Shown in pieces: positions 15,372-63,343 of a stretch of 64,000 nucleotides of DNA. Location of the stretch: assembly GCA_903864935.1 (NCBI GenBank), contig CAIPHT010000006.1, positions 101,198-165,197 on the forward strand, read 5' to 3'. The notes below the pieces were generated by a model, which did not search any database, had not been told where the DNA came from, and was given only the letters and a program-made list of their open reading frames with translations. Every line of letters begins with the position of its first letter. Within the stretch, counting starts at the first letter, position 1. A program made the translations under genes and the position numbers. This DNA is from Candidatus Vogelbacteria bacterium (GTDB lineage: Bacteria > Patescibacteriota > Minisyncoccia > Phycocordibacterales > XYD1-FULL-46-19).

Positions 15372-15383
15372 GGGGGGGGGGGG
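15372..15383. repeat. homopolymeric G12 tract followed by tgaagttggacctcgcc
   Basis: 12 consecutive G, directly 3' of the stop of gene 15401..16084 (minus). A similar G10+tgaatttcaacctcacc sits at 19888-19915. Confidence 0.8.
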
Positions 15384-15400
15384 TGAAGTTGGACCTCGCC

Positions 15401-16084: not shown

Positions 16085-17042
16085 CTTTTGGAAATAACAA
16101 GAAGGTGTTCATCTTCTCTTTTGTAAATTCAAAATTAATTTCATGGGGAAAAACATAATCAGCACCAAAGGAAATATACATATAAGCCCCTTCGGTTAGG
16201 TCTTTTTTAGACAAACTTAATTCTATCAAAAAAGGATTTATTATTTGTTGCGGGCCCAATTTGTGTTTGTCAGTGATGAGATTTAAGCCAAAACCAAACA
16301 TATTCCAACCAGTAAAAAGGCCTATTTGGGATGTTTTTTCTAAGGTAGAATTAATCCCCCCGGAAGTATAATTTATCCAAATGTCTCTTAAGACGCCATT
16401 TCCTTTATTTTGTATAACTAAACCGAAGCGACAAATAATTTTCTCCTCGTCCTCAAAATAGCTATCACCTTGGCTAACAGACCACCAGTAAATTAGCTCG
16501 GAAAGCCTTTGTCGATTATAAAGGCTAGAGATTATATCATGACTAGCAACAACAAAATCAGAACCAGACCTAACATAATATTTGCCCGGAATATCTTTTA
16601 TCTTTAGAGAGGGATTTACTTGAACTGGTGAGAAATAATATTTAGGTATTTCAGTGATTACATAACCATCCCCATTTTCATTTTTTATAGAAAAAGAATT
16701 AACTTCTTGCAAGATTGGCAATGATAATTTAGAGACCGCATTATTTAGTAAACCGACAAAATTATCGGGGTTTTTGACTGGATTTTTACAAAAAGTATTA
16801 TCCCCGTTATCTGTAATACCCCAAACAATTAAGCCTCCAGAAGTATTAGAGAAGCCAGATATTGCTTTGGCCAGATTTTTACGATCACTTTCACTCAAAA
16901 CCATTGATTTTTCTGAAATAGAGATATTTTTATAATCAATATAAAAATTTTCTTGATCACCTAAAATTAAAAGATTATCTATCGCTAAAACGCCCCTTGA
17001 TTTAAAACTTTCTAGCTCATTTTTGTAAGATTTAGATTCCAC
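16035..17042 (-). CDS. AlbA_2 (Schlafen-like) domain protein
   Basis: N-terminal ESKSYKNELESFKSRG...LAKAISGFSNTSGGLIVWGITDNG matches the AlbA_2/Schlafen core; 335 aa. Confidence 0.55.
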   Translation of the reverse strand: MESKSYKNELESFKSRGVLAIDNLLILGDQENFYIDYKNISISEKSMVLSESDRKNLAKAISGFSNTSGGLIVWGITDNGDNTFCKNPVKNPDNFVGLLNNAVSKLSLPILQEVNSFSIKNENGDGYVITEIPKYYFSPVQVNPSLKIKDIPGKYYVRSGSDFVVASHDIISSLYNRQRLSELIYWWSVSQGDSYFEDEEKIICRFGLVIQNKGNGVLRDIWINYTSGGINSTLEKTSQIGLFTGWNMFGFGLNLITDKHKLGPQQIINPFLIELSLSKKDLTEGAYMYISFGADYVFPHEINFEFTKEKMNTFLLFPKDERNASNFTRIFLESD

Positions 17043-17066
17043 TGTTTTACAAATTTTTCATATTTT

Positions 17067-19382: not shown

Positions 19383-19726
19383 AACTTATTGTACTTGGTA
19401 TGCTTCCCCTTTGCTTTTTCGACTGGATATTTTGCCTCATTTTTAGAAACTTTCTTTTCTTCGGCTTTCAAGATATCAATTCCTAGATCATGAGACATTA
19501 TGAGCAGGTAATTTAGAACGTCGGCCAACTCGTCAGCAATTTCGTCTTTGTTTGTTTTAACATATTCTTGAATCTCCTTTTCGCTTTTCCATTGAAAATG
19601 CTCCAGGACCTCTGTGGCCTCAAGAGTTAAGGAAATAGCTAAGTCTTTAGGATTATGAAATTGCTTCCAATCCCTAGCATCACGAAAAGCAATTATTCTC
19701 TTTGTTAGGCTCTTAATATCTGTCAT
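19379..19726 (-). CDS. MazG-like nucleoside triphosphate pyrophosphohydrolase (all-alpha NTP-PPase)
   Basis: EATEVLEHFQW...EIADELADVLNYLLIMSHDLGIDI...KNEAKYP. Its stop overlaps the ATG of the downstream 771-aa gene (ATGA). Confidence 0.7.
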   Translation of the reverse strand: MTDIKSLTKRIIAFRDARDWKQFHNPKDLAISLTLEATEVLEHFQWKSEKEIQEYVKTNKDEIADELADVLNYLLIMSHDLGIDILKAEEKKVSKNEAKYPVEKAKGKHTKYNKL

Positions 19727-19797
19727 TAGCCCTATTTTACCACATTTTCGAACAAAAATAAACCCCCTACTTCGCCAAGGCTTCGAAGGGCAAGCCC

Positions 19798-19886
19798 CCT
19801 AAACCGGGCAAGTATTCTTCCCTAGAGCCGTATACAGGCCACACCAACTAAAGATTGCTTCGAAGAGGCAGAAGCCGGAGAAGAAT
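19798..19886. repeat. ~90-bp direct repeat, copy 1 (left boundary of the Fic cassette)
   Basis: cctaaaccgggcaagtattctt...gccgtatacag...cttcgaagaggcagaagccggagaagaata; about 85% identical to 21451-21540. Confidence 0.8.
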
Positions 19887-19887
19887 A

Positions 19888-19897
19888 GGGGGGGGGT
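19888..19897. repeat. homopolymeric G10 tract
   Basis: 10 consecutive G between the direct repeat and the stop of gene 19918..20190. Confidence 0.8.
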
Positions 19898-19917
19898 GAA
19901 TTTCAACCTCACCCAGG

Positions 19918-20190
19918 TTAAACACTAAAACTAACAACGTCTCCATCAAAAAGAGGAGAATTAATCTGAGGAGAGACATTGTTTATCTCAAAGCCAAGCT
20001 TCCCGGGAGGATATTTTTCTTCAATCTCCGGGTATGTCATAAAAATATTATGTAATAAATAAACAAAGGTTGAACCTTCGCTTAGGATCATCGAAGATTC
20101 TTTTTCTTTTGTAATTCTCGTCAGTTCCTCGTCGAATAAGATGGTAATTTGAATAGGTTGAGGAAATCTTAGGTCATCTTCATTTTCCAT
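19918..20190 (-). CDS. small hypothetical protein (90 aa, possible beta-grasp/MoaD-ThiS-like fold without C-terminal GG)
   Basis: ...PPGKLGFEINNVSPQINSPLFDGDVVSFSV resembles a ThiS/MoaD C-terminal segment. Immediately downstream of fic. Confidence 0.4.
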   Translation of the reverse strand: MENEDDLRFPQPIQITILFDEELTRITKEKESSMILSEGSTFVYLLHNIFMTYPEIEEKYPPGKLGFEINNVSPQINSPLFDGDVVSFSV

Positions 20191-20196
20191 AATCTC

Positions 20197-21378
20197 CTAC
20201 TTCTTTCGTTTAGCTTCTCTATTAAATGACTCGTCAAAGATTGCGTAATAATCAGCATAAATATACTTTTGGGCATATTCGGCATCACCAAGAGGCTCGA
20301 GAATTTTTAGTTTCTCAAGACGTTCGATTACTTTATAAGCCCCTGGTGCCGTAAAGCCGGTCCATTTCATAATCTCAGCGATACCGACAATTGGCTGGCC
20401 AAACAATTTGCGGACAATCTCCAAGGTAGATTCTGCAGATTTTTTACCAAGCTTTTGCATCTTGGCAAAATCACGATCGCGCAAACTGGTAATTTGAGTG
20501 CAAGCCTCAATACTTGAGCTAGCAATCTCGGCGACTCCCTCAAGAAAAAATTCTAGCCAAGCATTAATATCAGAATCTTCATCATGGTAGCCCTGTAATT
20601 TTTGGTAATAAAGCTTTTGATATTTTTTGAAATAACTAGAGAGGTACAAAACTGGTAATTCCAAAATTTTTGCATAGTGAATATACATGGCAATCATCAT
20701 TCGACCAGTACGGCCATTACCATCGGTAAAAGGGTGAATTGTCTCGAATTGAGCGTGGATAAGACCAGCCTTAACAAGAGAGGGATAATCGTCCTCAGCA
20801 TGAATAAACTTCTCAAGATCATCTAGGGATTTCTGCATATCAATAACGGTCGGAGGGACAAAAGAGGCATCAGCAGGAGTTTTGCCTCCAATCCAATTTT
20901 GTGAACGACGAAACTCACCCGGATAGGCATGTTGAGTGCACCGAGCGCCCGTCATTAGTCTCCCATGAAGCTCTCTGATAAATCTGAGAGAAATCGGAAA
21001 CTCTTTTGTTCGTTCGATACCATAATTGACAGCCTTAACGTAGTGTTCAATGTCATCAACATCACGATTGTTGCGGTCCTTTTCTTCGGTGACAGGAGCC
21101 GCCACCGCATCCTGAAGAGTAGCCCTTGTTCCCTCGATTTGACTAGAATAAGCAGCATCTTTCACAATAAACATGGAGATAAAAAAGTCTTTGTCAGGCA
21201 AAAGACGCGTAATGCCATCAAGTTTACCAACCAGACGAATAGCCTCTTCGTGCTTTTTGTAGAGTTTGGGAGTAATTACAAAACCCTCTTTCGGAGGAAA
21301 TGCGAAAGGAGTAAAGGCATTAAAACCTTCTTTTTGTTTAACATAACGGCCAATTTTTGGTTTGTTTACATTACCCAT
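20197..21378 (-). CDS. fic: Fic family protein (AMPylation/filamentation domain)
   Basis: Canonical Fic motif HPFTDGNGRTGR; 393 aa with a C-terminal wHTH-like region. Confidence 0.85.
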   Translation of the reverse strand: MGNVNKPKIGRYVKQKEGFNAFTPFAFPPKEGFVITPKLYKKHEEAIRLVGKLDGITRLLPDKDFFISMFIVKDAAYSSQIEGTRATLQDAVAAPVTEEKDRNNRDVDDIEHYVKAVNYGIERTKEFPISLRFIRELHGRLMTGARCTQHAYPGEFRRSQNWIGGKTPADASFVPPTVIDMQKSLDDLEKFIHAEDDYPSLVKAGLIHAQFETIHPFTDGNGRTGRMMIAMYIHYAKILELPVLYLSSYFKKYQKLYYQKLQGYHDEDSDINAWLEFFLEGVAEIASSSIEACTQITSLRDRDFAKMQKLGKKSAESTLEIVRKLFGQPIVGIAEIMKWTGFTAPGAYKVIERLEKLKILEPLGDAEYAQKYIYADYYAIFDESFNREAKRKK

Positions 21379-21450
21379 ACCTATATAAACATATTATGCT
21401 TTTTTGTTTACATTGTCAACTACGATATAAACTACTTTAAAGCCCCTATT

Positions 21451-21540
21451 CCTAAACCGGGCAAGTATTCTTACTCAACGCCGTATACAGCCCGCACCAG
21501 CTGAAGATCGCTTCGAAGAGGCAGAAGCCGGAGAAGAATA
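21451..21540. repeat. ~90-bp direct repeat, copy 2 (right boundary; encodes the C-terminus of gene 21452..22303)
   Basis: Identical blocks of 22, 11 and 30 nt shared with 19798-19886. Confidence 0.8.
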
Positions 21541-22303
21541 AGATTAAGGGATTCCAAGTGGTGAGTATCGCAAAGAAGAAGAGGGCGACGGCTAGGGCCA
21601 AACGAATTAGCCGATCTCTCTTGCCAATATTTTGGGAGCGGCCTCGGACCGAGCGCTCGGCAAAGAATTTGGCCAAGAAGCGATAAGCGAAGCCGACAAT
21701 AAAGGCGAGGGTAAACATTAACAAAATTAAGCCCCAACCGAAGGGTGAATAGATAAAATTGGCCGGAGACTTACCAAAGAAGTCTCGCTTGAGTTGTGGC
21801 AAAACTTTATAAACATTCACCGTCTCGGCAAAAGAGAAACTCTCAATCTCGCCAACCGCCAAAGCATACTTACCTTTGTTCAGAGGGCTAGTAACGATAA
21901 CTTCATAATCTCCCGCTGGAGCTTGAGACTTATACTCTGGGCCGCGCCAATAATCATCATAGCCAAACTCTTCATGATACTTCTCCCAATTAGAATTTTG
22001 TCCGCCTAAGACGGCCAATTGTTCCCCATCGCGAGAAACAGTCGCCGAGATATCCCGCGGGGGGAGTGCCCCGGTGCCCGCCCTTTGATATGGCAACAAG
22101 ATATTAACATAGAGGGCAAAAGGTTTGTCTGAATGAATTTTATAAATCACCGGCTCCCCCGCCAGTTGCCCATAATAGGCCTTGGAGACCTCGGGGTCAC
22201 TAACAATAATCGGATTGCCGGCGGCGAGGCGGGGTTGATGGGCAAGGGCGAGGATGGGAATCCCTAAAATAATAAGGAGGATGGTGAGGAGGTATTTTTT
22301 CAT
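21452..22303 (-). CDS. hypothetical exported/membrane protein
   Basis: Signal peptide MKKYLLTILLIILGIPILALA, C-terminal TM helices; 283 aa. Confidence 0.55.
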   Translation of the reverse strand: MKKYLLTILLIILGIPILALAHQPRLAAGNPIIVSDPEVSKAYYGQLAGEPVIYKIHSDKPFALYVNILLPYQRAGTGALPPRDISATVSRDGEQLAVLGGQNSNWEKYHEEFGYDDYWRGPEYKSQAPAGDYEVIVTSPLNKGKYALAVGEIESFSFAETVNVYKVLPQLKRDFFGKSPANFIYSPFGWGLILLMFTLAFIVGFAYRFLAKFFAERSVRGRSQNIGKRDRLIRLALAVALFFFAILTTWNPLILFFSGFCLFEAIFSWCGLYTALSKNTCPV

Positions 22304-22351
22304 ATACTAAAATTATGCGCTTAAGTTATTTTTTAAGCAACGAGGGCAAGC

Positions 22352-23308
22352 TTAGATCAGATTAAGAATTAATTTAATAACTTTTTCTTTATCCTTTGGG
22401 TCGCTGCTCGCGACAAGAATGGTTAAGGTGGTAAGAGCCGTTGGGGTAAGTTTCTTGGTATCCAAAATTTTGGCCTGCTCAAGAAACCAGACAAAGGCAA
22501 AAGCCCCGCTTCGTTTATTGCCATCGGCGAAGGGATGATTCTTAACCATAAAGTACAGCAAGTGAGCCGCCTTCTCTTCAACAGCGGGGTAGAGTTCTTT
22601 GCCGGCAAAAGACTGCATCACGTTACCGACAATACCTGCGACAGACCCCGTCTCGCGTTCTCGTCCAAACAACTCGGTGGCCTCCTTTTTGCGCGTTAAC
22701 TCATCTTTCAATCCAAACAAACTCTTAGTGATTTTGTCAGTCGTGAGCTCAACCTTCTTCTTGGTCAATTTGCCCTTAGGCAGAGCGTCTCGGTCATAAG
22801 CATCAAGTGACAACCAAGTGTCCGCAAAAAGTGAGACGAGCTCGGCCACGCCAAGGGCTCCGACGTCGCTACCAGCCGGGAGAAGTTTCTTCATATCCTC
22901 AACCACACCCAAGAACTGGGCATAATTATGTTTAATCACCTTAGGATTAATAGTGAAACCCTTGGTGATGTGCTCACGGAGAGTCTTGGTGGCCCATTGG
23001 CGGAATTGGATAGCTCTTGCTGAATTAGTTTTGTAACCAACAGACAAAATAACATCCAGATTATAAAACTGTACTTGGTAAACTTTCCCATCATCGGCAG
23101 TATGTGCAAATTTTGCACAAACTGAATTTTTGTCTAATTCTTTATCTTTTAGAATATTTCTAATGTGCTTAGTAATAACAGAACGTTCAACACCAAACAC
23201 CTCCGCAATCTGCGCCTGGGTTGCCCAAATTGTCTCAGCCTTATAATCACCCTTGAGCTCAATGGCTCCGGACTTGGCTTGGTAGATTATTAAATTTTTC
23301 TTTTTCAT
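22352..23308 (-). CDS. RhuM-like N-terminal domain fused to Fic/Doc family domain
   Basis: N-terminal IELKGDYKAETIWATQAQIAEVFGVERSVITKHIRNI (RhuM-like); C-terminal HPFADGNKRSGAFAFVWFL (Doc-type HxFx(D/N)GNKR). Confidence 0.75.
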   Translation of the reverse strand: MKKKNLIIYQAKSGAIELKGDYKAETIWATQAQIAEVFGVERSVITKHIRNILKDKELDKNSVCAKFAHTADDGKVYQVQFYNLDVILSVGYKTNSARAIQFRQWATKTLREHITKGFTINPKVIKHNYAQFLGVVEDMKKLLPAGSDVGALGVAELVSLFADTWLSLDAYDRDALPKGKLTKKKVELTTDKITKSLFGLKDELTRKKEATELFGRERETGSVAGIVGNVMQSFAGKELYPAVEEKAAHLLYFMVKNHPFADGNKRSGAFAFVWFLEQAKILDTKKLTPTALTTLTILVASSDPKDKEKVIKLILNLI

Positions 23309-23382
23309 TATTTAAATTATAACACAAAAAAATCCCTGGAGGCTTACTGCCCCAAGTTCGAATTCAGGGTTCATAGCGAAAA

Positions 23383-23706
23383 TTATTCCACCACCACGGC
23401 TGTGCCATAGCAGAGCACCTCGGTGACTCCCTGGAGGAGTTCGGTGGTGTCGTAGCGGACACCAATGATGGCATTGGCACCTTGAGCTTCGGCATGCTTG
23501 ATCATAAGCTCGAAGGCTTCTTCGCGGGTCTTCTCACAGAGGGAGGTGAAGAGGGAGATATTGCCACCCAATATTGTCTGGAGCCCACCGCCGATAGTAC
23601 CGACAATGGAGCGTGAGCGAACAATTATCCCCTTCACAATCCCTAAATTCTTAACAATCTTCTGACCTGGTAATTCGAACGCGGTCGTGGTGTTATTGTG
23701 ATTCAT
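23383..23706 (-). CDS. YbjQ/UPF0145 family protein
   Basis: [27 protein letters not shown]...[10 protein letters not shown], typical of the YbjQ pentamer family. Confidence 0.85.
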
Positions 23707-25409: not shown

Positions 25410-25473
25410 AAAAGCACAAAGGAATCAAGGGCAGGTCTTGGGCTCACTTAAGGCCTGCCCTTTTAGGCTCCAT

Positions 25474-29504: not shown

Positions 29505-30832
29505 TATCGCTTCTTCCATTCGCTGTCCTGACGGACCAAAAGTTTTTCTTTGAGCTCAGGGTGAAGCATTATTTCTTCAACCACCTTTTCCATACGCACC
29601 GATTGTGACCCTTTAACAAAAATTACGTCCCCCGCCTTTAGCTTCCCCTGCAAAAATTGCCCCGCTTCAAGTGAATCATCAAAATGTTTTATTTTTTTCT
29701 CGGAGAATTTTTTCTCCACCAAAGCCTCATCAATAAACTTAGAGCGCAAGCCAACGGTGATAACAAGATCACAAAACTCGGCCGCTTGATAACCAATCTT
29801 TTTATGCGCTTCAACCGTCATGCCACCCAATTGCATCATATCACCCATAACCGCAATCTTGCGACCCTCATTCTTAAAACTGGCAAGGGCTGTTAACCCG
29901 GCACCCATTGCCGCTGGCGAAGCATTGTAAGTATCGTCAAGAATAGTGGTGTTCTTAATGCCCTCAATTAAGCGCAAGCGTCCTGGCGGTGGCAAATAAC
30001 TCTCAAGCGAATCAACCATCTCGACCATATTAAGGCCAAGCTTGTCTCCCACCGAGAGAGCCGCAAGAACAGGATAAATTTGGTGCGCGCCGATAACACC
30101 AGGAATTCTTACTGGGATCTCTCTTTCATTGTGTTGAAGTTTGAAGGCGAGACCTGCCGGCAAACTCTGACCCTCTTTCTCCTCATAAAATGTCTCACCT
30201 AAACCAGCCTGATAATCGGCCGCCTCAGCCTGCCCATAGGTAAAAACTTCGGCCTTAATCTCCGGGATAAATTTAAGAGCATTGGGGTCATCAGCATTAA
30301 GCAGGACAAAGCCCTCAAGCGGGACAGATTTGGGCAACATCATTTTCTCATTTATGACCTCGTCCTTAGATTTGAAGAACTCCATATGCACAGGGACCTC
30401 CGGCATGAGAGTGGTCACGGCGATATCAAACTTAACCCATTTGAGAATATCCTTGATTTCCCCCGGATACTCCAAGCCAACCTCAAGCACGAGCCACTTA
30501 GGATAAGACTCTTTGCCAAACAATTGACGCAGACCATAAATAATAATCTCAAGCCAACCAAAAGGATCATTCCACGCGGACTGACAACCTAAGATAGTAA
30601 GAGGTACACCGATATCACCGTTATAACTCTTCTCACTCTTACGGACAGAGAAACCGCCAGCGCTGAGGACTCGATAGATAGCATCCTTGGTCGAAGTCTT
30701 GCCGACAGAACCCGTCACTCCAATAATCTTGGGGTGATATTTATCAAGAAGCATCTTGGCCTCCCATTGCAATATCTTGGCAATTGTTGTTTTTAAAATT
30801 TTTTTCATGATTTTATTTTCTCCCGACCACAC
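29504..30832 (-). CDS. murF: UDP-N-acetylmuramoyl-tripeptide--D-alanyl-D-alanine ligase (Mur ligase, MurF-like)
   Basis: GVTGSVGKTSTKD P-loop, DDTYNASP, C-terminal VKGSQSVRMEKVVEEI matching MurF rather than MurE (no DNPR). Confidence 0.75.
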   Translation of the reverse strand: MWSGENKIMKKILKTTIAKILQWEAKMLLDKYHPKIIGVTGSVGKTSTKDAIYRVLSAGGFSVRKSEKSYNGDIGVPLTILGCQSAWNDPFGWLEIIIYGLRQLFGKESYPKWLVLEVGLEYPGEIKDILKWVKFDIAVTTLMPEVPVHMEFFKSKDEVINEKMMLPKSVPLEGFVLLNADDPNALKFIPEIKAEVFTYGQAEAADYQAGLGETFYEEKEGQSLPAGLAFKLQHNEREIPVRIPGVIGAHQIYPVLAALSVGDKLGLNMVEMVDSLESYLPPPGRLRLIEGIKNTTILDDTYNASPAAMGAGLTALASFKNEGRKIAVMGDMMQLGGMTVEAHKKIGYQAAEFCDLVITVGLRSKFIDEALVEKKFSEKKIKHFDDSLEAGQFLQGKLKAGDVIFVKGSQSVRMEKVVEEIMLHPELKEKLLVRQDSEWKKR

Positions 30833-30869
30833 CTCGGGCTCACTTGAGGTCTGGTCGGGGAAAAGTGGG

Positions 30870-34383: not shown

Positions 34384-34459
34384 GGGCTCAGCGTTTTAAA
34401 AATGTCTTGCCGAAATCGTAGATTGAGGAGATCCGAGGACTTTTTAAAACGCTGAGCCC
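34384..34459. repeat. intergenic hairpin repeat family A, copy 3
   Basis: Outer stem gggctcagcgttttaaaaa/tttttaaaacgctgagccc; core tgtcttgccgaaatcgtagattgaggagatccgaggac. Confidence 0.7.
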
Positions 34460-35567: not shown

Positions 35568-35832
35568 AAACCGCGCGGGCGCCCCGAAGGGTTCCCGCGC
35601 GAGAAAAATGTGTCGATCATGAAAATAACCAAAATAATAGCCCGAGTGCCAGAAAGGTCAATATGACCTTGCACAAATACATTGTGTCTATGGCCCAACA
35701 CTGGGCTTCATAGTTTTCCTGAATCTTCTGGTCTCTCTGAGTGGGTCCGCGATTTTCATCCATGGCAAAGCTTTCCTTTTTGTTGTAGAAGTTCCTCCAC
35801 CACAAACCGTACCACGCTTTCAAAATCTTTGC

Positions 35833-35877
35833 AAAAAGGTAACACAACTGACGACCGTCAGCTGTGTTACCTTTTTG
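35833..35877. terminator. hairpin family B, copy 1 (aaaaaggtaacacaactgacg ac cgtcagctgtgttaccttttt), bidirectional-terminator-like
   Basis: About 20-bp stem flanked by an A-run and a T-run. Near-identical copies at 36458-36503 and 55806-55850. Overlaps ORF 35617..35847, which is therefore doubted. Confidence 0.6.
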
Positions 35878-36433: not shown

Positions 36434-36457
36434 GCCCTAAATTTTATCAAATTCCCA

Positions 36458-36503
36458 AAAAGGTAACAATGCTGACGGTCGTCAGGGATGTTACCATTTT
36501 TTA
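36458..36503. terminator. hairpin family B, copy 2
   Basis: aaaaaggtaacaatgctgacggtcgtcagggatgttaccatttttt. Confidence 0.55.
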
Positions 36504-41250: not shown

Positions 41251-42303
41251 TTAACGCGGAGTTAATTCTTCTTCATTATCGATTAATATGTCACGATAGG
41301 CCTCAAAGTCATCGAGAATTACTCCCGTCCCACGCACCACCGCGGTGAGAGGGTCCTCGGCCAGGTGCACGGGGATCTCTAGCTCTTTGCTTAAGAGTTC
41401 GTCGAGACCACGAATTAGGGCTCCTCCGCCGGTAATCACCAAGCCTCGACGCATAATATCGGAGACAACTTCGGGAGGCGTCGCTTCTAAAACTTCTTTA
41501 ACTGCATCAACAAAAATAGTTAGGGAAGTAAAAATGGCTTCGCGCACATCCGAATCGGTAATAGCAACTTCACGTGGGAGACCAGTCACTAAGTCACGAC
41601 CACGAACAAGAGTTTCATTATTATCCTTCTGTTTCAAAACGGCGCCAATATTTATTTTGACTTCTTCGGCGGTGCGCTCACCCAACAAAATTTTGAACTC
41701 ATCGCGGACATAATTAATAATGTCCTGATTGAAGCGTTCGCCAGCGATCAAAAGATTCTTAACTTTAACCAAACCGCCAAGAGAGATAACCGCAATATCC
41801 GTTGTGCCCCCACCAATATCGACAATCATGTTACCAACTGGATCAAAAATCGGCATATTAATACCAATGGCCGCGGCCACTGGTTGCTCGACAATATGTA
41901 CCGCGCGCGCGCCGGCTGCCGTGGCCGCATCACGCACCGCCCGACGTTCAACGTTCGTAATACCAGACGGGACAGCAATGACAACACGAGGGCGAAAAAG
42001 ATTGCTACCAACTAAAGTGGCTGTTTTTTTCAAAAAATAGGCCAGCATCTCCTCGGCCACTTCATAATTAGAAATGACTCCTCCCACTAGAGGTTTAATC
42101 GCTTGAATGTGAGCTGGTGTGCGTCCAATCATCTGACTCGCATCATTGCCGACCGCCACCACGCGCCCCGTCTTCTGGTTCAATGCAACAATTGATGGTT
42201 CGGAGATAATGATCCCGTGACCCTTTACATACACTAAGGTATTAGAAGTACCCAGATCGATACCAACATCATTAGAAAACATTTTTGGTAATTGCCAGAA
42301 CAT
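41251..42303 (-). CDS. mreB: rod shape-determining protein MreB (actin homologue)
   Basis: IGIDLGTSNTLVYVKG...DIGGGTTDIAVIS. Confidence 0.95.
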   Translation of the reverse strand: MFWQLPKMFSNDVGIDLGTSNTLVYVKGHGIIISEPSIVALNQKTGRVVAVGNDASQMIGRTPAHIQAIKPLVGGVISNYEVAEEMLAYFLKKTATLVGSNLFRPRVVIAVPSGITNVERRAVRDAATAAGARAVHIVEQPVAAAIGINMPIFDPVGNMIVDIGGGTTDIAVISLGGLVKVKNLLIAGERFNQDIINYVRDEFKILLGERTAEEVKINIGAVLKQKDNNETLVRGRDLVTGLPREVAITDSDVREAIFTSLTIFVDAVKEVLEATPPEVVSDIMRRGLVITGGGALIRGLDELLSKELEIPVHLAEDPLTAVVRGTGVILDDFEAYRDILIDNEEELTPR

Positions 42304-43613: not shown

Positions 43614-44612
43614 TCAAAGAACACCAATTTGCTCAATCTGCCGTTTTAAACCATACCCATTACCCCACCCCAGCATCCCCAAATATGATTGTAATATCTC
43701 CTCTTTACCACCGGCTTCTCTAATCTTCTTAAACATCCTTCTCTTGGTCGAAGTCCGCAAAACACAATGTTTATAGAAATGCACCCAGCCCAAAAAATCA
43801 ACGCCCGAAGAGAGCGTCTTGATGTAAACTTTATCAGGGTGCAGTTTTAGTTTAAGTTTTTCTGCTAGAAATTCGTCAACCTCAGTGAGAAGCTTTTCTA
43901 AATACTTTTTGTCACTCGACATAATCACAAAATCATCAGCATAACGGACATAATATTTAACTTTAAGCTGATGCTTCATAAATTGGTCAAAATCATTCAT
44001 GTAGATATTTACTAAAAGTTGCGAGGTCAAATTACCCAAGGGTAGACCTTTGCCTCTTTCAGTGCTGTGGAAACTTACAATAACTTGCTCAAGTAGCCAG
44101 ATAATATCAGGGTCTGGTTCAAACTTCTTCAAGATTTTAATCAAAACCTCGTGATCAATTGAAGCAAAGAACTTGCGCACATCACATTTCAAGACCCAAC
44201 AGGCCTGCGTATTGTTTTGTGAGACCTTCCGCCCAAATTCGGCAAATCGTTTAATTGCTCGGCGCGTGCCTTTGTTTAGACGACAAGAATATGAATCAAA
44301 AACAAATTTAGGGTTGAAGTGATAATACAGAACCCGATAAATAGCATGATGGAGTAGACGATCACGAACCGTGGCCTTGTGGATATCACGCGGTTTGGGA
44401 TCAGAAATTTTGAAGGCTTGATAAGAGCCATGGGCATAAATTTTGTTTTTGAGATCAGAATGGAGGGCAATGATATTACTCATGAGATTTCTCTCAAATT
44501 CTTGAACATCTTTTTTAGATTTTTTGTCTCTGATGAATTCCCGCCAAGCGCCTAGCAAATTATCAAGCGAGATGATATCCTCATATTTATGGATAAATTG
44601 AATTTTTCTCAC
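43614..44612 (-). CDS. reverse transcriptase of a diversity-generating retroelement (DGR RT), GTG start
   Basis: RT motifs: LPLGNLTSQLLVNIYMNDFD (DGR-type (I/L)GxxxSQ, not group II QGxxxSP), YVRYADDFVI (YxDD), KT...FLGW. 332 aa. TR/VR pair nearby. Confidence 0.85.
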   Translation of the reverse strand: MRKIQFIHKYEDIISLDNLLGAWREFIRDKKSKKDVQEFERNLMSNIIALHSDLKNKIYAHGSYQAFKISDPKPRDIHKATVRDRLLHHAIYRVLYYHFNPKFVFDSYSCRLNKGTRRAIKRFAEFGRKVSQNNTQACWVLKCDVRKFFASIDHEVLIKILKKFEPDPDIIWLLEQVIVSFHSTERGKGLPLGNLTSQLLVNIYMNDFDQFMKHQLKVKYYVRYADDFVIMSSDKKYLEKLLTEVDEFLAEKLKLKLHPDKVYIKTLSSGVDFLGWVHFYKHCVLRTSTKRRMFKKIREAGGKEEILQSYLGMLGWGNGYGLKRQIEQIGVL

Positions 44613-44625
44613 ACAACCAATAATA

Positions 44626-44634
44626 CCCCCCCCC
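44626..44634. repeat. homopolymeric C9 (G9 on the coding strand) in the RT 5' leader
   Basis: 9 consecutive C at 44626-44634, 14-22 nt upstream of the GTG start of the RT on the minus strand. Confidence 0.8.
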
Positions 44635-44733
44635 GCAAAATTACTACCACTTCTTCAGTATCTCAAATCAGCCTATCTTCTGTGGCATCAATATCACCAG
44701 GTTCTTCCCAAGGTTGAGCGGTTTTCTCTAGGT

Positions 44734-45006
44734 TTGAGAGTTGATAATTTATTTATTGAAACAATAGAAGCGGTTGCCAGTGCCTCTTTTTTGTCTCCAG
44801 TCGACAAGGCACCTTATGTTCGACTGGCCATAAGAAAAATGGATACAATAAAAGTTTTGTTATTGGTTTTATGGGAAACAAGGTCTCTGGATACTAAAAA
44901 ATATGCGGCCATATCTGTAAAACTAGAAGAGATTGGCAAAATGCTCGGTGGTTGGAGTGGCCAATTGCTAAAACAAAACTCCCCCGCAAAAACGGGAGAG
45001 AAATGA
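44734..45006 (+). CDS. avd: Avd-like accessory variability determinant (four-helix-bundle protein), non-ATG start
   Basis: C-terminus LEEIGKMLGGWSGQLLKQN resembles Bordetella bAvd IAEVGRILGSWIARVNRK. Frame open from 44602; first candidate start TTG 44734. Divergent to the RT and ends 5 nt before the TR. Confidence 0.45.
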   Translation: MRVDNLFIETIEAVASASFLSPVDKAPYVRLAIRKMDTIKVLLLVLWETRSLDTKKYAAISVKLEEIGKMLGGWSGQLLKQNSPAKTGEK

Positions 45007-45010
45007 AGGA

Positions 45011-45127
45011 GTTGCGGAAGGCAAACCAATCGTAGGAGTTGTCGAAGTTCTCGATCCAGTTGAGATTCGCCTTGCGCTTCGAGTCGTTCCACCAGACATA
45101 GCAGGCGTTGCGGTTGCCCTCGAAGGA
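45011..45127 (-). repeat. DGR template repeat (TR), 117 bp
   Basis: Aligns gap-free to 45495-45611 with 11 mismatches, all at T on the + strand (A on the sense/minus strand). Encodes an Asn(AAC)-rich segment if translated. Confidence 0.85.
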
Positions 45128-45490
45128 ATTGTGCGTGAGACTATCCGTACCACTGCCCTTTGAATACTCTCGGGGCTGTATATTATTCGGCATCTCTTCC
45201 AATAGAATTACTACTGGATACAATGCCCTAGTGACTCGCACCAAGTAGCTTCATTTTTTGTGAAGTGTCTGCATACATCACTCTATCCGAAACCGTAGTC
45301 GCGAATATTCTCAATGTATGGATACTGGATTCGGTAGAGAGAAACCGTAGTCGCTCACATATTCACCTACTACCACCAACTATCTTACCATAACTAATAC
45401 GAGCTCGGTATCCGCCAAAGCGAACACCGAGCCCAAGAGCTGAAGACCGAGGCCAAAGAACAGAAGTTCAAAGAGGCCCAGGCTTAAGGT

Positions 45491-46111
45491 CTACTTGCGG
45501 AAGGCAAACCAAGCGTAGGAGAAGTCGAAGACCTCGATCCAGTCGAGACCCGCCTCGCGCATCGAGTCGTTCCACCAGACATAGCAGGCGTCGCGGTTGC
45601 CCTCGAAGGAACAATCCGTCGTGGCCACCACGTACATCGGATTTTGCTCGAGCTGTTCGTGAAGCTTCGGGTGCTGTTCGCCAACGGCGAAGACTTCGCG
45701 CGGGTTGGTCCGCTTAAGGCCGTGAGCTCCCGCCCACACATTGGCCTTGTCCCAGTTGCCGTCGCCCTTCGGGAAGTTGAGAAGGATGAGTTCCTCCTCG
45801 ATGACTTCCCCGCCGACCGACGGATACTGACCGCCAACCTTGCGGACATTGTAGCTATCCGGCGTGTCGGGGCCAGCGGCACTCACGGCATCTTGCCACT
45901 CACGGCTCTGATCAACCTTGACCCTGAGAACGTGGACGCGCGCGCCTTCCGGCGGAGCAATGCCCCCCGATTCAAGTTTGAGAGAGTCGAGGAAGTGGCC
46001 AAAAGAACCGTCGTCGATGGCTTGCTGAAAACGATCACGACCCACCTGTTTCTCGTTGGCGATTTTGCGGAGACACTCCGCCTGGCTAACTGTTACGGGC
46101 TTGCGACTCAT
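45491..46111 (-). CDS. DGR target protein with C-terminal variable (C-type-lectin/FGE-like) domain
   Basis: C-terminus ...FEGNRDACYVWWNDSMREAGLDWIEVFDFSYAWFAFRK is encoded by the VR; GC about 58%. Confidence 0.8.
   Translation of the reverse strand: MSRKPVTVSQAECLRKIANEKQVGRDRFQQAIDDGSFGHFLDSLKLESGGIAPPEGARVHVLRVKVDQSREWQDAVSAAGPDTPDSYNVRKVGGQYPSVGGEVIEEELILLNFPKGDGNWDKANVWAGAHGLKRTNPREVFAVGEQHPKLHEQLEQNPMYVVATTDCSFEGNRDACYVWWNDSMREAGLDWIEVFDFSYAWFAFRK
45495..45611 (-). repeat. DGR variable repeat (VR) at the 3' end of the target gene
   Basis: Same 117-bp alignment. VR codons differ from TR only where the TR sense strand has A (AAC>GAC/GGC/GTC/TTC, AAG>ATG/GAG, GAC>GCC). Confidence 0.85.
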
Positions 46112-48094: not shown

Positions 48095-48853
48095 TCAATT
48101 TGGTAAAATAAACGCCAGATGTTCGAGAATCAAACGATTGGACGAACGGGGGTTCTCGAGATAACGGCGGGATTTTTCTAATTCGTGGAGGGAAAGTTCT
48201 TCGTCTTTAGTAATTTTCCTCATCTCTATCCCCGCTCGGAGAGCTTTTTCTAAATCAATAACAAAATCAATTATTTCGCTCTTACTTTTGTCTTTATTTT
48301 TTAGAAATTCTTTTTGTAAGAATTCAAGACGGTCGGGGAGGTCTAGTTTGAGAAAGTTACTAGCCCTCTTTTCGGCTTCACCGAAGTCGGATCTGGCTAC
48401 GCGAGATACGACTTCAGTTCCGCCTCCACTTGGAGGTTTCGCCTCCAAGTTACCGCCAACATTCATTACCATCATTCGCGAACGAACTGTCGGGAGAAAA
48501 ATCTCGGCCGAACGAGCAATAATAAAAAAATGAGTATCAGGGATTGGCTCTTCAAAAGTCTTGAGCAAAGCATTTTGCGCTTCGGGAGTCGCTGAATTTA
48601 TCTCAAGGACAAAAAAACGGCCACTGCCAGAAAATGATTTGCGTGATTCCTTCTCAATCAAACCATGACTGTCTTTGATACCAAAAGAATCATAACTCTG
48701 CCAAAAGATATCTGGGCAAGAGGACAAATTCTCAATCTTTAGATTCTTTTTTAGTTCTTGCTTAAGAATTTCTCGCCAATATTCCCTATCTCCGACCAGC
48801 AAATAGGCATGATATAATTCCTCAAAATTAAAGATTTTTTTATCTTTCATCAA
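48095..48853 (-). CDS. holB: DNA polymerase III delta' subunit-like (clamp-loader AAA+), carrying an in-frame palindromic-element insertion
   Basis: HAYLLVG, FFIIARSAEIFLPTVRSR (sensor-2 like). The insertion encodes ...KPPSGGGTEVVSRVARSDFGEAEKR. Confidence 0.65.
   Translation of the reverse strand: MMKDKKIFNFEELYHAYLLVGDREYWREILKQELKKNLKIENLSSCPDIFWQSYDSFGIKDSHGLIEKESRKSFSGSGRFFVLEINSATPEAQNALLKTFEEPIPDTHFFIIARSAEIFLPTVRSRMMVMNVGGNLEAKPPSGGGTEVVSRVARSDFGEAEKRASNFLKLDLPDRLEFLQKEFLKNKDKSKSEIIDFVIDLEKALRAGIEMRKITKDEELSLHELEKSRRYLENPRSSNRLILEHLAFILPN
48394..48426. repeat. GC-rich palindromic element, type A, inside holB coding sequence (in frame)
   Basis: gaagtcggatctggctacgcgagatacgacttc, identical to 57638-57670. 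Confidence 0.85.
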
Positions 48854-48881: not shown

Positions 48882-49895
48882 CTATCTCTTAGAGATAATA
48901 CTCCTTTTATAGACATCAATGTGATCGAGGGCAATCCCCGTCCCCTTGGCCACACAGTAGAGAGCCTCCTCTGCGACGTAGGCCTTGACCCCTGTCTTCC
49001 TAAAGATGAGTTCGGCCAAGTTGCGAAGTTGTGACGAACCACCCGTCAAGACTATCCCTTGATCGATAACATCCGCCGAGAGCTCTGGCGGAGTATCTTG
49101 GAAGACGGCTTTAATGGCCCTCACAATTTCTTTAAGTTCATTGTCAATCGCTCGAACAATTTCGTTGGTTCGCACTTCGGCCGAACGCGGGAGTCCAGTC
49201 ATGAAGTCGCGACCCTTAATCGTATAAGACATCTCATCTTCAATCGGGACAGCTGAGCCAACCGAAATCTTCACCTCCTCGGCCGTCTTGTCACCAATCG
49301 CAAGATTAAAAGTTTTTTTAATATAATCGGCAATCGCTTGGTCTATCTTATTACCAGCATGCTTAACCGAAGTTGAAGAAACAATACCGCCAAGAGAGAT
49401 TACCGCGACATCTGTCGTTCCCCCACCAATATCAACAACCATGTGCCCGCAAGCTTCATAAATAGGTATACCCGCACCAATTGCCGCCAAAATTGGTTCC
49501 TTCACAACATAGGCATTCTTGGCGCCGGCGCGCATTGCGGCCTCAATCACCGCTCGACGCTCAGTTGAGGTGACTCCAGCCGGAACAGAAATCATGACAT
49601 CGGGCTTGAACAAATTAAAACGCCCAATCGCTTTATTGATATAATAACGCAACATCGCTTCAGTAATACGATAATCGGCAATCACCCCATCCTTCATTGG
49701 CTTGTAGACCATAATGGTATCCGGGGCCTTGCCCACCATATCCTTGGCCTCGCCGCCCACCGCCACCACTCGATTATCCATTAAATTAACCGCCACCACG
49801 GACGGTTCATTGAGAACAATTCCCTGACCCGGCACATAGACCAAAGTATTGGCCGTGCCTAAGTCTATTCCTAATTTTGTGGTAAACACTGACAT
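48882..49895 (-). CDS. MreB-family actin-like protein (second paralogue)
   Basis: LGIDLGTANTLVYVPGQG...DIGGGTTDVAVIS; 337 aa. Confidence 0.85.
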   Translation of the reverse strand: MSVFTTKLGIDLGTANTLVYVPGQGIVLNEPSVVAVNLMDNRVVAVGGEAKDMVGKAPDTIMVYKPMKDGVIADYRITEAMLRYYINKAIGRFNLFKPDVMISVPAGVTSTERRAVIEAAMRAGAKNAYVVKEPILAAIGAGIPIYEACGHMVVDIGGGTTDVAVISLGGIVSSTSVKHAGNKIDQAIADYIKKTFNLAIGDKTAEEVKISVGSAVPIEDEMSYTIKGRDFMTGLPRSAEVRTNEIVRAIDNELKEIVRAIKAVFQDTPPELSADVIDQGIVLTGGSSQLRNLAELIFRKTGVKAYVAEEALYCVAKGTGIALDHIDVYKRSIISKR

Positions 49896-53909: not shown

Positions 53910-55799
53910 ATGAAGATCGTCACTGTTATTCCCCTAAAAAAGAGCGTCTGGCGAGATAATTTGACATATTTTACCGCGCAAGATGCTCCTCTCGGCTCAC
54001 TCGCCACCGTCCCAGTGCGCGGACAACAAGTCCTCGCCCTGATCGTTGATAGCCGCGAAGCGAGTGACTTAAAGAGTGAGTTAAAAACGGTGGACTGGCA
54101 ATTGCGCAAGGTCACCAAAATTAAGAAGATAAATTATTTTGATTCGGCCTTCATTAGCGCGGCTGGCCTCACGGCCGATTATTTTGCCACTCTCACCGGG
54201 CACGTTATCAAGACAGCCGTTCCTCAAGCGATTCTCGACGAACTCCCCGAAGTTAAAATAGCAAAAAGGGGGGAAGCCGAGAAAATCTTAGCCGAGGTCA
54301 ACGCCGTGCAAGAATCCGAAGACGAACGTTTGGCTCGTTATAAAAGCTTGATTCGAGAGGCCTTTGCCAAGAAACAATCGGTTTACCTTTGCTTACCAAC
54401 AAGTGCCGACATCAATCGCATTATTGAACCACTTAAAAAAGGGATCGAAAATTATGTCTTGGTGGGACACGGTGCCCTCTCCAAGAAAGAGCAACTCGAT
54501 TTTTGGAAAAAGGCGCAGAGCATCGAACACCCCATTCTTGTTGTGGGCACCCCCCTCTTTCTCTCTCTCCCTCGCGAGGATATAAGCACAATCATCATTG
54601 AACGAGAAAATTCCTCTGCTTACAAAATGTTGGCCCGACCCTTCGTCGATTGGCGCTTCTTTATTGAAGAATTAGCGAAGCAAAGAGAAATCCGTTTGAT
54701 CTTGGGTGATAGTGCCCTGCGCAGTGAGACAATCTATCGCTTAGGCAAGGGCGAGATCGCTCCCTTGGGCTCAATAAAATATCGCTATACGGGGAGTGCC
54801 ACCAGTCAAATTATTGCTCTCGGTACCGACAAGGACAAAACAGCAATCCTTGAGGCGACCAACGAACGCTTAAGAGAACGAATAGAAAACGCTTTAGACA
54901 GTAACGAAAAGATTTTTATCTATTCTGGCCGACGCGGTCTCGCTCCCCTAACTCTTTGTCGCGACTGCGGGACAATTATGAATTGTGACGTCTGTCATCT
55001 CCCACTCACCATCCACCAGAGTCCTCGTCTTAAAGAACGTGTCTTTGTTTGTCATAAATGCAGTCAGATTGTGGAAATTGAAGATGAATGCAAAAAGTGT
55101 AAGGGCCAACGTCTCGCCATCATTGGCTTCGGAGTTGAGAAGATTGCCGAGGAGCTCTCCGTCGCTTTTCCCAACACCACCCTCTTCCACCTCGACAGTG
55201 ACAGTACCAAAACTAGCAAAAAAGCTGAGGAGGTAATTAGGCAATTCAACAAAACACCAAACAGTATTCTAATTGGCACCGAGATGGCTCTTCATTACTT
55301 AGATAATCAAGTTGATAATGTCTTGGCTGTTGGTCTCGACGCCTTCCTCGCTATGCCCGATTGGCGCGCGAGTGAAAAATTATTCTCCACCCTCCTCCGA
55401 CTCAAACAATTGGCCCGTAAGCATTTTATTCTTCAAACACGTGAGCCAGAAGAAAAAATTTTCTCTTATATCACTGGTGGCAATCTTATCGACTTCTATC
55501 GTGACGAAATTGCCGACCGACAAGAATTAGGTTACCCACCCTTCAAAGTCCTGATCAAAATATCTCTGGCCGGGAGTTTACCCGAAATTAGAAAAGAGAT
55601 GTCCAGATTGGAAAAAATGCTCGAAAAATGGCACCCCCTTGGTTATCCTGATATCTCTAAAAATACTAAGGGCCTCCCCGTTCTTAATATTCTCCTCCGT
55701 CTCCCGGCGAGTGCTTGGCCCCATCCCGAGTTATTAAAAATTCTCAAATCCCTCCCCCCATCTTTCATAATTAACGTCGATCCAGAATCGGTATTATAA
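53910..55799 (+). CDS. priA: PriA-like primosomal protein N' with degenerate helicase motifs
   Basis: N-terminal MKIVTVIPL...LATVPVRGQQVLALIV; Cys cluster CRDCGTIMNCDVCHLPLTIH...CHKCSQ...CKKCKG. Walker A absent (KKQSVYLCLPTS) and DEEH replaced by IIIEREN. Confidence 0.7.
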   Translation: MKIVTVIPLKKSVWRDNLTYFTAQDAPLGSLATVPVRGQQVLALIVDSREASDLKSELKTVDWQLRKVTKIKKINYFDSAFISAAGLTADYFATLTGHVIKTAVPQAILDELPEVKIAKRGEAEKILAEVNAVQESEDERLARYKSLIREAFAKKQSVYLCLPTSADINRIIEPLKKGIENYVLVGHGALSKKEQLDFWKKAQSIEHPILVVGTPLFLSLPREDISTIIIERENSSAYKMLARPFVDWRFFIEELAKQREIRLILGDSALRSETIYRLGKGEIAPLGSIKYRYTGSATSQIIALGTDKDKTAILEATNERLRERIENALDSNEKIFIYSGRRGLAPLTLCRDCGTIMNCDVCHLPLTIHQSPRLKERVFVCHKCSQIVEIEDECKKCKGQRLAIIGFGVEKIAEELSVAFPNTTLFHLDSDSTKTSKKAEEVIRQFNKTPNSILIGTEMALHYLDNQVDNVLAVGLDAFLAMPDWRASEKLFSTLLRLKQLARKHFILQTREPEEKIFSYITGGNLIDFYRDEIADRQELGYPPFKVLIKISLAGSLPEIRKEMSRLEKMLEKWHPLGYPDISKNTKGLPVLNILLRLPASAWPHPELLKILKSLPPSFIINVDPESVL

Positions 55800-55805
55800 A
55801 AAGTA

Positions 55806-55850
55806 GAAAAAGGTAACGTCCGTGACGATCGTCAGCTGTGTTACCTTTTT
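55806..55850. terminator. hairpin family B, copy 3
   Basis: aaaaaggtaacgtccgtgacgatcgtcagctgtgttacctttttc, directly after the priA stop. Confidence 0.55.
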
Positions 55851-57398: not shown

Positions 57399-58301
57399 AT
57401 GAATTTTGCTTTCTTCGGAACTGATGAATTTAGCGTGCGGGTTTTAGATAATCTAAAAAAGGCAAATCTTTTGCCTTCACTTATTGTCACCGTGCCCGAT
57501 CAACCCAAGGGACGCAAGATGGTGATGACTCCCCCACTAGCGAAGACGTGGGCAGAGGAAAATAATATTGAGGTGATGCAGCCGGCAAGTTTGAAAGGCC
57601 TCAAGTTTTCTGAAGTCGCATCTGACCAGAGCTCCCCGAAGTCGGATCTGGCTACGCGAGATACGACTTCTGTCCGCTCTTGGGACCTCTTCATCGTTGC
57701 CTCATATGGCAAAATCATTCCCCAAGAAATTCTCGACATCCCAACTCATGGTACCCTAAATATTCACCCATCGCTTTTGCCTAAATACCGCGGACCCTCA
57801 CCACTTGAGACAGCCATCTTGAATGGGGACCAAGAAACCGGTGTCGCCATCATGCTTGTTGATGCGCTAATGGATCACGGGCCAATTGTTGCCATGGAGA
57901 AAATTGAATTAAACGATAAGTATAATTTCGAACAATTGCGCGACAAACTGGCCGACGAAGGAACAAGCTTGCTAAAAAAAATTTTATCAGATTATCTCGA
58001 CGGTAAAATTACACCCGAACCTCAAGATCACGACCAAGCTACTGTTACCAAAAAATTTACTAAAGAAGACGGCTTCCTCGATCAAGAAGCGCCCGCTCTT
58101 TCTCGCTATCGTCAAATTCTCGCCCTTAATCCTTGGCCTGGCACTTACTTAGATTACCCTGGTCCCGATGGCAAAATTCGCCTAATTATAAAACAAGCTC
58201 ATCTCGACGGAGATAAGCTTGTCTATGATCGTGTCGTCCCCGAAGGACGCAAAGAGATGGATTGGAAATCTTTTCTAAATGGTTTACACGCGACGAAATA
58301 G
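57399..58301 (+). CDS. fmt: methionyl-tRNA formyltransferase with an in-frame palindromic-element insertion
   Basis: MNFAFFGTDEFSV..., HPSLLPKYRGPSP (SLLP motif), C-terminal domain. Extra ...SEVASDQSSPKSDLATRDTTSVRSW... segment between QPASL and VASYG, compared with canonical Fmt. Confidence 0.9.
   Translation: MNFAFFGTDEFSVRVLDNLKKANLLPSLIVTVPDQPKGRKMVMTPPLAKTWAEENNIEVMQPASLKGLKFSEVASDQSSPKSDLATRDTTSVRSWDLFIVASYGKIIPQEILDIPTHGTLNIHPSLLPKYRGPSPLETAILNGDQETGVAIMLVDALMDHGPIVAMEKIELNDKYNFEQLRDKLADEGTSLLKKILSDYLDGKITPEPQDHDQATVTKKFTKEDGFLDQEAPALSRYRQILALNPWPGTYLDYPGPDGKIRLIIKQAHLDGDKLVYDRVVPEGRKEMDWKSFLNGLHATK
57638..57670. repeat. GC-rich palindromic element, type A, inside fmt (in frame)
   Basis: gaagtcggatctggctacgcgagatacgacttc; a partial second copy gaagtcgcatctg lies 26 nt upstream. 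Confidence 0.85.

Positions 58302-61990: not shown

Positions 61991-63343
<1,353 letters not shown>

Follow-up and report, generated by a model that had tools for sequence, protein, structure and literature searches.

REP/REPIN-like palindromic repeats in frame within genes of a Paceibacterota clade, and a candidate RAYT-like transposase in related genomes

Palindromic elements in the window

We analysed a stretch of 64,000 nucleotides from a Candidatus Vogelbacteria genome (contig CAIPHT010000006.1; hereafter the window), in which short palindromic elements lie between genes and inside the genes holB, fmt, eno and cysS. They resemble repetitive extragenic palindromic (REP) sequences and the REP doublets forming hairpins known as REPINs. 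The window contains three copies of an element that we call type A and three of type B, with eight copies or relatives overall (Table 1). Type A is 33 nt long and consists of a 12-bp stem with a conserved G.A mismatch and a 9-nt loop, GGCTACGCG; its sequence, GAAGTCGGATCTGGCTACGCGAGATACGACTTC, had no match in 100 shuffles of the window. Type B is 36 nt long and has the form GAAGTNNNACTTC-AAGTGAGCCC-GAAGTNNNACTTC. The 13-mer GAAGTNNNACTTC was seen four times, against 0.07 expected, and makes up both the eno copy and the intergenic type B copy.

Table 1. Positions of the elements and related hairpins in the window
Feature	Position	Strand	Details
Type B variant, cysS (cysteinyl-tRNA synthetase)	2506-2555 (core 2513-2548)	+	Host gene 1402-2721
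Type A, intergenic	14499-14531	-	GAAGTCGGATCTGGCTACGCGAGATACGACTTC with 1 mismatch
Type B, intergenic	15272-15307	+	Between the DUF2726 gene and open reading frame 15401-16084
Single REP-like 13-mer GAGGTCCGACCTC	15347-15359	+	Flanks a run of 12 G
Single REP-like 13-mer GAAGTTGGACCTC	15385-15397	+	Flanks the same run of 12 G
Hairpin with type B loop AAGTGAGCCC, unrelated stem	25427-25462	-	Intergenic, rmuC/rplU
Hairpin with type B loop AAGTGAGCCC, other stem	30822-30859	-	Occupies the 37-nt gap between a penicillin-binding protein gene (stop 30870) and a Mur ligase gene (start 30832)
Type A, holB	48383-48415	+	Exact match to GAAGTCGGATCTGGCTACGCGAGATACGACTTC; host gene 48095-48853, minus strand (DNA_pol3_delta2)
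Remnant GAAGTCGCATCT at the canonical fmt site, from an older second element	57612-57623	+	Intact in L026
Type A, fmt	57626-57683 (core 57638-57670)	+	Core an exact match to GAAGTCGGATCTGGCTACGCGAGATACGACTTC; host gene 57399-58301
Type B (REPIN-like), eno	62423-62466 (core 62427-62462)	+	Host gene 62000-63343

The holB copy is read antisense to the loop orientation and codes EVVSRVARSDF; its predicted DNA fold has an energy of -11.4 kcal/mol (z -3.7). In fmt the core is extended by an outer stem, CCAGAGC/GCTCTTGG, which was predicted to fold with it, and the copy codes SPKSDLATRDTTS. The third type A copy begins right behind the DUF2726 gene (14532-15230, minus strand), whose stop codon is at 14532-14534. 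The core in eno comprises two inverted 13-nt palindromes, GAAGTCCAACTTC and GAAGTTGGACTTC, around AAGTGAGCCC; it codes an 11-residue peptide and has a predicted fold energy of -18.2 kcal/mol (z -5.4). The cysS core, GAGGTGAGTCCTC-AAGTGCGCCC-GAGGTCTCTCCTC, has GAGG/CCTC arms, the loop AAGTGCGCCC and an outer stem TTTTCT/AGAAAA, and codes GESSSAPEVSPR; the same subfamily, including the same T.T mismatches, was also found in the related loci L007 and L012. The stem family of the rmuC/rplU hairpin has relatives in L011, L016 and L034. The intergenic type B copy and the two single 13-mers, which fall within 15347-15397, form a small cluster of units. The run of 12 G there (15372-15383), just downstream of the minus-strand open reading frame (ORF) 15401-16084, may be a slippage-prone tract or a sequencing weakness.

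An earlier note, made from this DNA alone, had drawn attention to the elements. Its account of the type A copy in fmt, of the intergenic type A copy with one mismatch and of the identity between the fmt and holB copies held, the holB copy itself lying 11 nt from the 48394-48426 given there, and a motif search recovered both of its type B copies. The cysS copy, the hairpins at 25427-25462 and 30822-30859 and the fmt remnant had escaped it. The elements had been called GC-rich, which is so only mildly (50–55%, against 44.5% for the window). The core lengths of 33 and 36 nt are multiples of 3 and the frame is kept in the holB, fmt and eno copies, just as the note had said, and the peptides that it quoted for these three were right.

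Hairpin structure and paired changes

Both types were predicted to fold as one long hairpin, with a stem of 13–17 bp in type B. From the outside in, the layout is a variable yet complementary outer stem of 6–7 bp, a mostly mismatched position, a conserved inner GAAGTC...GACTTC and a conserved loop. The unit on which the elements are built is the palindrome (C)GAAGT-NNN-ACTTC(G). In type B two such units stand in inverted orientation on either side of a conserved 10-nt spacer, as in a REPIN, and type A shares the hairpin foot GAAGTCG...CGACTTC, here placed around a nested stem-loop.

Covariation was then evaluated on distinct copies, in the choice of which the outer-stem positions had played no part. 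Among 46 type B copies, 85% of the cells were paired and 19 of 20 pairs had changed on both sides; the covariation score was reached by none of 500 shuffles, and slid registers were far off too. For type A (16 copies) the paired fraction was 78%, with 12 pairs changed on both sides and the G.A mismatch present in 15 copies. Furthermore, each subfamily kept its own internal mismatches across loci and genomes, indicating that the elements were copied from templates and did not originate independently.

A role as a DNA uptake sequence, raised by the resemblance of AAGTGAGCCC to the core of the Haemophilus uptake signal sequence, was rejected, because there are only five or six occurrences in the 64 kb and nearly all are hairpin loops. 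A structured RNA family or intrinsic terminator was not supported either, there being no Rfam match and no consistent orientation of the genic copies; an Rfam scan of the window at gathering thresholds returned only a tRNA and no family for the elements.

Filled and empty insertion sites

Enolase homologues placed the source organism among the Paceibacterota. Alignment with the enolases of the PDB placed the eno element in a clean gap of 14–15 residues. Two closely related enolases, P0003 and P0004 (92% and 88% identical), are without the segment, and in the syntenic DNA of the closest relative (L001, enolase 92% identical) the eno and fmt sites are both empty. The inserts in eno and fmt are therefore insertions, since orthologues with a 92% identical enolase do not have them. 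Relative to the empty allele in L001 the fmt insert is a 60-nt indel, and it takes the place of a variable segment of about 16 residues. The earlier note had suggested checks for clean insertions and for presence/absence polymorphism among relatives; the gap in enolase was clean, and polymorphism was observed. It had also named the finding that would speak for ancestral segments, the same peptides in unrelated lineages; none of the distant homologues and PDB structures had the inserted segments.

The same sites were found to be occupied differently in different relatives. The enolase P0005 (80% identical) has the identical peptide, and P0002 and P0006 have other inserts in the same place. In L002 the eno element is the same and fmt has a type A variant; in L003 the eno site has a different stem with the loop AAGGGCGCCC, and fmt has type B. 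The fmt gene of L026 contains two elements, one being the same insert as in the window, where the other survives only as the remnant listed in Table 1. Across 12 close relatives the fmt linker is either empty or occupied by type A, by type B (which is found both ways round), by an unrelated double hairpin (L043) or by a tandem repeat (L038), and in more distant Fmt genes no element was found in the linker. The holB insert sits in a hypervariable linker after the AAA+ module, where homologues have type A, type B or none, and the cysteinyl-tRNA synthetase (CysRS) of L010 has another subfamily in the same region as the cysS element of the window. Targeting, conversion and a selection filter are candidate explanations for this re-use of sites.

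Further inserts were noticed at two of these sites. The double hairpin at the fmt hot spot of L043 (7275-7340) reads TTTGGGAGCCGAACTCCCAAA, a 10-nt spacer and TTTGGGAGTTCGGCTCCCAAA, a type B architecture in unrelated sequence. In the holB linker of the window, a second small hairpin, TTGGAGG-TTTCG-CCTCCAA (48430-48448), stands beside type A and codes NLEAKP; similar peptides, NLEAKPSS and DLEVKPRG, occur in other HolB homologues and may represent another insert family. Short inserts (PARAGG, PVRSG, NPARPLGG) also recur at two other positions in the HolB homologues P0130, P0137, P0140, P0143, P0145 and P0148, a DNA example being the palindrome CCTGCCCGCGCAGGCGG in L038 (1720, minus strand).

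Coding context and host proteins

In related Paceibacterota assemblies, 51 of 62 copies lay in an ORF of 150 aa or more that stays open on both sides of the element. These genic copies occurred in both orientations to transcription and in all stop-free phases, and among those of type B one reading phase was in excess (20 of 37). The host genes code for UvrC, ComEC, PolA, RNase II/R and a class-V aminotransferase and, as judged by eye, LeuRS and CysRS, and several genes contain two to four copies.

In an AlphaFold model of the window enolase, the mean predicted local distance difference test score (pLDDT) was 89, and the sole segment below 50 was residues 144-153, the element peptide, modelled as a coil that links the N-terminal domain to the barrel. 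The earlier note had assigned all the inserts to loops of canonical homologues; the gap in the PDB alignment and the low pLDDT at 144-153 bear this out for enolase only. The element-coded peptides are hydrophilic and probably disordered.

A translational bypass element or mini-intron does not fit, as the open frame runs on at both sides of the 51 copies counted as genic and the cores are multiples of 3. We do not claim a stop-free design as an adaptation, for four or five open phases out of six are unremarkable in 33–36 nt.

Distribution and conservation of the family

An exact-pattern scan with one genome per species gave 33 loci. Twenty-five of them were in metagenome-assembled genomes (MAGs) named Paceibacterota or Vogelbacteria, 11 in a single MAG, and four matches fell in unrelated phyla, within an estimate of about nine chance matches. 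Loci fetched through Fmt provided a sample that is unbiased as to the element. In this sample copies were present only where Fmt was at least about 60% identical to the window protein; about 0.75 Mb of distant Paceibacterota DNA (Fmt at most 53% identical) contained no copies, and neither did about 25 kb of the closest relative (L001/L051). Viral contigs scanned with the type A and type B patterns gave no match and hence no sign of a phage vector.

The elements are better conserved than their surroundings. The eno element, compared over 39 nt, was identical to that of the window at all 39 positions in L002, where the rest of eno was 73% identical (47% at third positions). In L026 it matched at 37 of 39, both differences forming a compensatory pair in the arms, and the rest of eno was 62% identical (40% at third positions). 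Identity above that of the host gene points to constraint on the element, to homogenisation or to repeated new delivery.

A RAYT-like gene flanked by element units

The most element-rich MAG contains an ORF (L029, 670-1344, minus strand) that matched Pfam Y1_Tnp (E 1.7e-4) and NCBIfam REP_Tyr_transpos (E 1.8e-10), the latter a family of REP-associated tyrosine transposases (RAYTs). This ORF was first found with an E. coli YafM sequence, used as a lead only, and was then verified by Pfam, NCBIfam and a fold search; a query with an IS200 TnpA sequence gave no match. The family to which the ORF belongs counts over 1,100 patescibacterial members, for most of which a Y1_Tnp match is on record, and is characterized by an invariant HxH and the motif Y-I-H-x-N-P. 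A single-sequence phmmer search of the protein against the PDB returned nothing, and the family profile gave weak matches, all of them Y1 transposases. The structure model (pLDDT 80) had its best PDB fold match in 4ER8 (E 2e-5), the E. coli REP-associated tyrosine transposase bound to a REP hairpin, followed by the TnpA proteins of IS608, IS200 and ISDra2.

The gene lies between rpsI and grpE in L029, L116/L117, L118/L119 and L120 (five loci, same position), and CGAAGTNNNACTTCG, the 15-nt palindrome that forms the element arms, is present on both sides of it. L116 and L002 are parts of one contig, and the flanks in L116, CGAAGTTGGACTTCG and CGAAGTCCAACTTCG, match exactly both arms of the eno element that L002 and the window share. 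Around further RAYT-like genes (L009, L014 and L059) the flanking small palindromes are different ones, as expected of cognate REP-RAYT pairs. The L014 gene (5757-6560) is flanked by the palindrome ATCAAACACCCGGTGTTTGAT and has an additional in-frame copy of it within its own coding sequence.

A Pfam scan of 50 window ORFs detected no transposase, and the only mobile-element enzyme was the reverse transcriptase of a diversity-generating retroelement, unrelated to the repeats. In this retroelement (43614-46111) the reverse transcriptase gene (RVT_1; 43614-44612, minus strand) is accompanied by a template repeat (45012-45128) and by a variable repeat (45495-45611) that occupies the 3' end of ORF 45491-46111 (minus strand); all differences between the repeats are at template adenines (A to G, T or C).

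Other repeats and genes in the window

A variable, defence-like island (13000-23400) contains genes for DUF2726, Schlafen AlbA_2 and MazG-like proteins, a gene in which a Schlafen-group-3 helicase and an S24 peptidase are fused, and a pair of Fic/DOC genes, of which one includes a RhuM domain. Within the island, a 90-nt repeat occurs as a pair (19798-19887 and 21451-21540, 89%). A 48-nt repeat with the small palindrome CCAACAAACTCCAGTTTGTAAGGATGTT is present four times beside small genes (13227-13274, 13616-13663, 13840-13887 and 14419-14466) and may be a shared regulatory or promoter region. Elsewhere, a 68-nt repeat pair (6477-6544 and 34388-34455, 88% identical) has long terminal inverted ends, TCGGCTTTTTGAAAA...TTTTCAAAAAGCCGA, and constitutes a separate palindromic family, and a terminator-like hairpin family, AAAAAGGTAACA..CTGACG/CGTCAG..TGTTACCTTTTT, lies at 35820-35876, 36444-36500 and 55794-55850. 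Two MreB paralogues (41251-42303 and 48882-49895) are 7.6 kb apart and share a 131-nt stretch of 73% identity.

Discussion

We consider the elements to be REP/REPIN-like non-autonomous palindromic repeats that have multiplied in one Paceibacterota clade of the Candidate Phyla Radiation (CPR) and were most likely mobilised by a RAYT-like enzyme, a reading to which we give a probability of roughly 0.7. According to this proposal, a RAYT-like tyrosine transposase of the Y1/HUH type would most likely move the elements on single-stranded DNA. Copies would mostly have survived where they entered a tolerant linker or surface loop without breaking the frame or bringing in a stop codon, and they would lie mostly within genes because these genomes have almost no intergenic space. 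Copies inside genes would be translated into 11–13 residues and would be neutral for the host proteins.

Several observations weigh against this proposal. When the end tags of REPs were looked for, GTAG/CGTC was not at the ends, which read GAAGT.../...ACTTC with consensus flanks GTGA.../...GCAC; GTAG was found only on the opposite strand of the loop of type A, where 10 of 16 distinct copies have it. The 10-nt spacer is the most conserved part of the element, is missing from the RAYT flanks and is common to stems unrelated to GAAGT...ACTTC. The outer 6–7 bp differ between copies and remain complementary, which would not be expected if a fixed unit were simply cut and pasted; these outer stems may have arisen from palindromic targets already present, by fold-back synthesis or by quasi-palindrome correction. 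No direct target-site duplication, which marks the IS-derived miniature elements with terminal inverted repeats (MITEs), was visible at the eno or fmt junctions relative to the empty alleles, the flanks being too diverged for base-level resolution, and a clean target site was not definable from filled and empty alleles in linkers so diverged. The L029 ORF scored under the curated cut-offs (22.1 against 23 bits in Pfam, 40.9 against 80 bits in NCBIfam). A tblastn search of the window found no RAYT-like gene, so that the link to the elements runs through relatedness to other genomes. Finally, we infer translation of the inserts from frame preservation only.

Some of these features would be accounted for if the elements had spread and been homogenised without a dedicated transposase, by template switching at hairpins (quasi-palindrome correction or fold-back synthesis) and ectopic gene conversion, with the RAYT-like gene a bystander that collects repeats in its flanks. 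Outer stems that vary and are complementary nonetheless, the compensatory double changes at orthologous copies and the missing target-site duplication all fit such a process, and conversion or loop inversion would explain why the same fmt and holB sites hold different subfamilies and orientations. However, template switching perfects or extends palindromes and cannot alone put the same 33–36-nt sequence in unrelated genes. Moreover, the RAYT gene is flanked on both sides in five loci by a unit that matches the elements of that genome, which is the defining signature of REP-RAYT systems. We regard spread without a transposase as unlikely; template switching is compatible with a transposase and may shape the outer stems after insertion.

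Somewhat less likely still is that the hairpins are kept for a host function, as RNA elements (terminators, RNase or stability sites, translational pauses), as structural sites in DNA or as useful peptide linkers. Conservation far above that of synonymous sites in the host genes, the conserved 10-nt loop and the position of intergenic copies next to stop codons or in short gaps (14499-14531, 30822-30859) would be in line with a function, as would the reading-phase excess in type B. That phase bias is soft, however, because copies at orthologous sites are not independent. The occurrence of genic copies in both orientations to transcription means that no single RNA sequence is conserved, and no Rfam family was matched. 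Close relatives manage without the inserts, the closest having no copy in about 25 kb, and the peptide is predicted to be disordered. That the segments are ancestral parts of the proteins, as the identical peptide in the more distant enolase P0005 suggests at first sight only, or are assembly artefacts is very improbable, given that all PDB enolases and the two enolases of 92% and 88% identity lack them, that one nucleotide sequence recurs in unrelated genes and that independent assemblies from JGI, ENA, NCBI and Logan show the same elements.

We therefore retain mobilisation of REP/REPIN-like elements by a RAYT-like enzyme as the preferred explanation. It would extend REP/RAYT-type repeats and the in-frame 'decoration' of proteins to the CPR, whose genomes are usually described as streamlined and repeat-poor. 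To our knowledge the activity that mobilises inserts like the Rickettsia palindromic elements (RPEs) has never been identified, and we know of no transposase for the RPEs themselves; a concrete candidate enzyme for inserts of this kind is offered here. Inserts of 33–50 nt are lineage-specific indels in the marker genes eno, fmt, cysS, uvrC and polA and may disturb CPR alignments, phylogenies and assembly, and the hot-spot sites flag insertion-tolerant linkers of essential proteins.

We further put forward, tentatively, that in the gene-dense CPR genomes a REPIN-RAYT pair has moved its habitat from intergenic to coding DNA. The hairpins would then be long-lived at orthologous sites in essential genes, kept palindromic while the surrounding codons diverge to saturation, and would time and again decorate linkers in proteins of replication, repair and translation. 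If this possibility is borne out, the elements would provide a natural system that ties selfish DNA of the Rickettsia type in proteins to an identifiable enzyme, and REPINs that evolve under coding and structural constraints jointly.

Relation to known systems

REPs, REPINs and RAYTs (together the 'REPtron') have been described in E. coli and Pseudomonas, the Pseudomonas doublet being about 90–110 nt long (PMC3337134, PMC3116915). The elements of the window resemble them in being many short imperfect palindromes, in the inverted doublets that make one hairpin (type B), in the several sequence groups per genome, in the retention of stem mismatches within subfamilies and, in relatives, in a unit-flanked Y1/HUH gene at a conserved chromosomal position with 4ER8 as its best fold. 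They differ in having no GTAG/CGTC tag, in their smaller size (unit 13–15 nt, doublet 36 nt), in a spacer that is the most conserved part instead of the least, and in their CPR host. Whereas REPs and REPINs are mainly extragenic, about 80% of the copies here lie within genes and keep the frame. The transposase, at about 224 aa, is longer, divergent and under the curated RAYT cut-off.

Intragenic GTAG/CGTC REPs have been reported from Proteobacteria, Opitutus and Rickettsia (including the short RPE-4 and RPE-6) as in-frame singlets or dimers of about 10–30 residues (Di Nocera et al. 2013, PMC3733652). They are often in replication and repair genes (UvrABC, PolA), and related species may hold different REPs at one site (PMC3733652). 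UvrC and PolA are hosts here too, and re-use is seen at the sites in fmt, holB, eno and cysS. In the genomes with intragenic GTAG/CGTC REPs most copies are intergenic, whereas here most are genic, of another sequence class and in another phylum. As in-frame intragenic REPs had already been described (PMC3733652), the phenomenon is less unprecedented than the earlier note implied. Its statement that such elements had not been described for CPR genomes agrees with the literature searched, in which no paper linked RAYTs or REPINs with CPR; this is absence of evidence within that literature only.

The likeness to RPEs that the earlier note had pointed out is apt as a description of the phenotype: palindromic repeats lie in frame in unrelated, often essential genes of a reduced genome, with the peptide at fold-compatible sites. 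RPE-1 is about 150 bp long and codes a conserved peptide of about 45–50 aa (PMC10969869). The elements here are 33–50 nt and code 11–13 aa, have no sequence relationship to RPEs, reside in Paceibacterota and come with a candidate transposase. By analogy, IS200/IS605 elements and their miniature derivatives, the palindrome-associated transposable elements (PATEs), would have in common with this system an enzyme of the Y1/HUH type that recognises subterminal hairpins in single-stranded DNA, and the lack of target duplication. Unlike theirs, the transposase gene here is syntenic, appears single-copy and is not dispersed, and the repeats are far below the size of an insertion sequence, with left and right ends that are not distinct from each other. 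Of the known systems REP/REPIN with RAYT is the closest, and not RPE-1.

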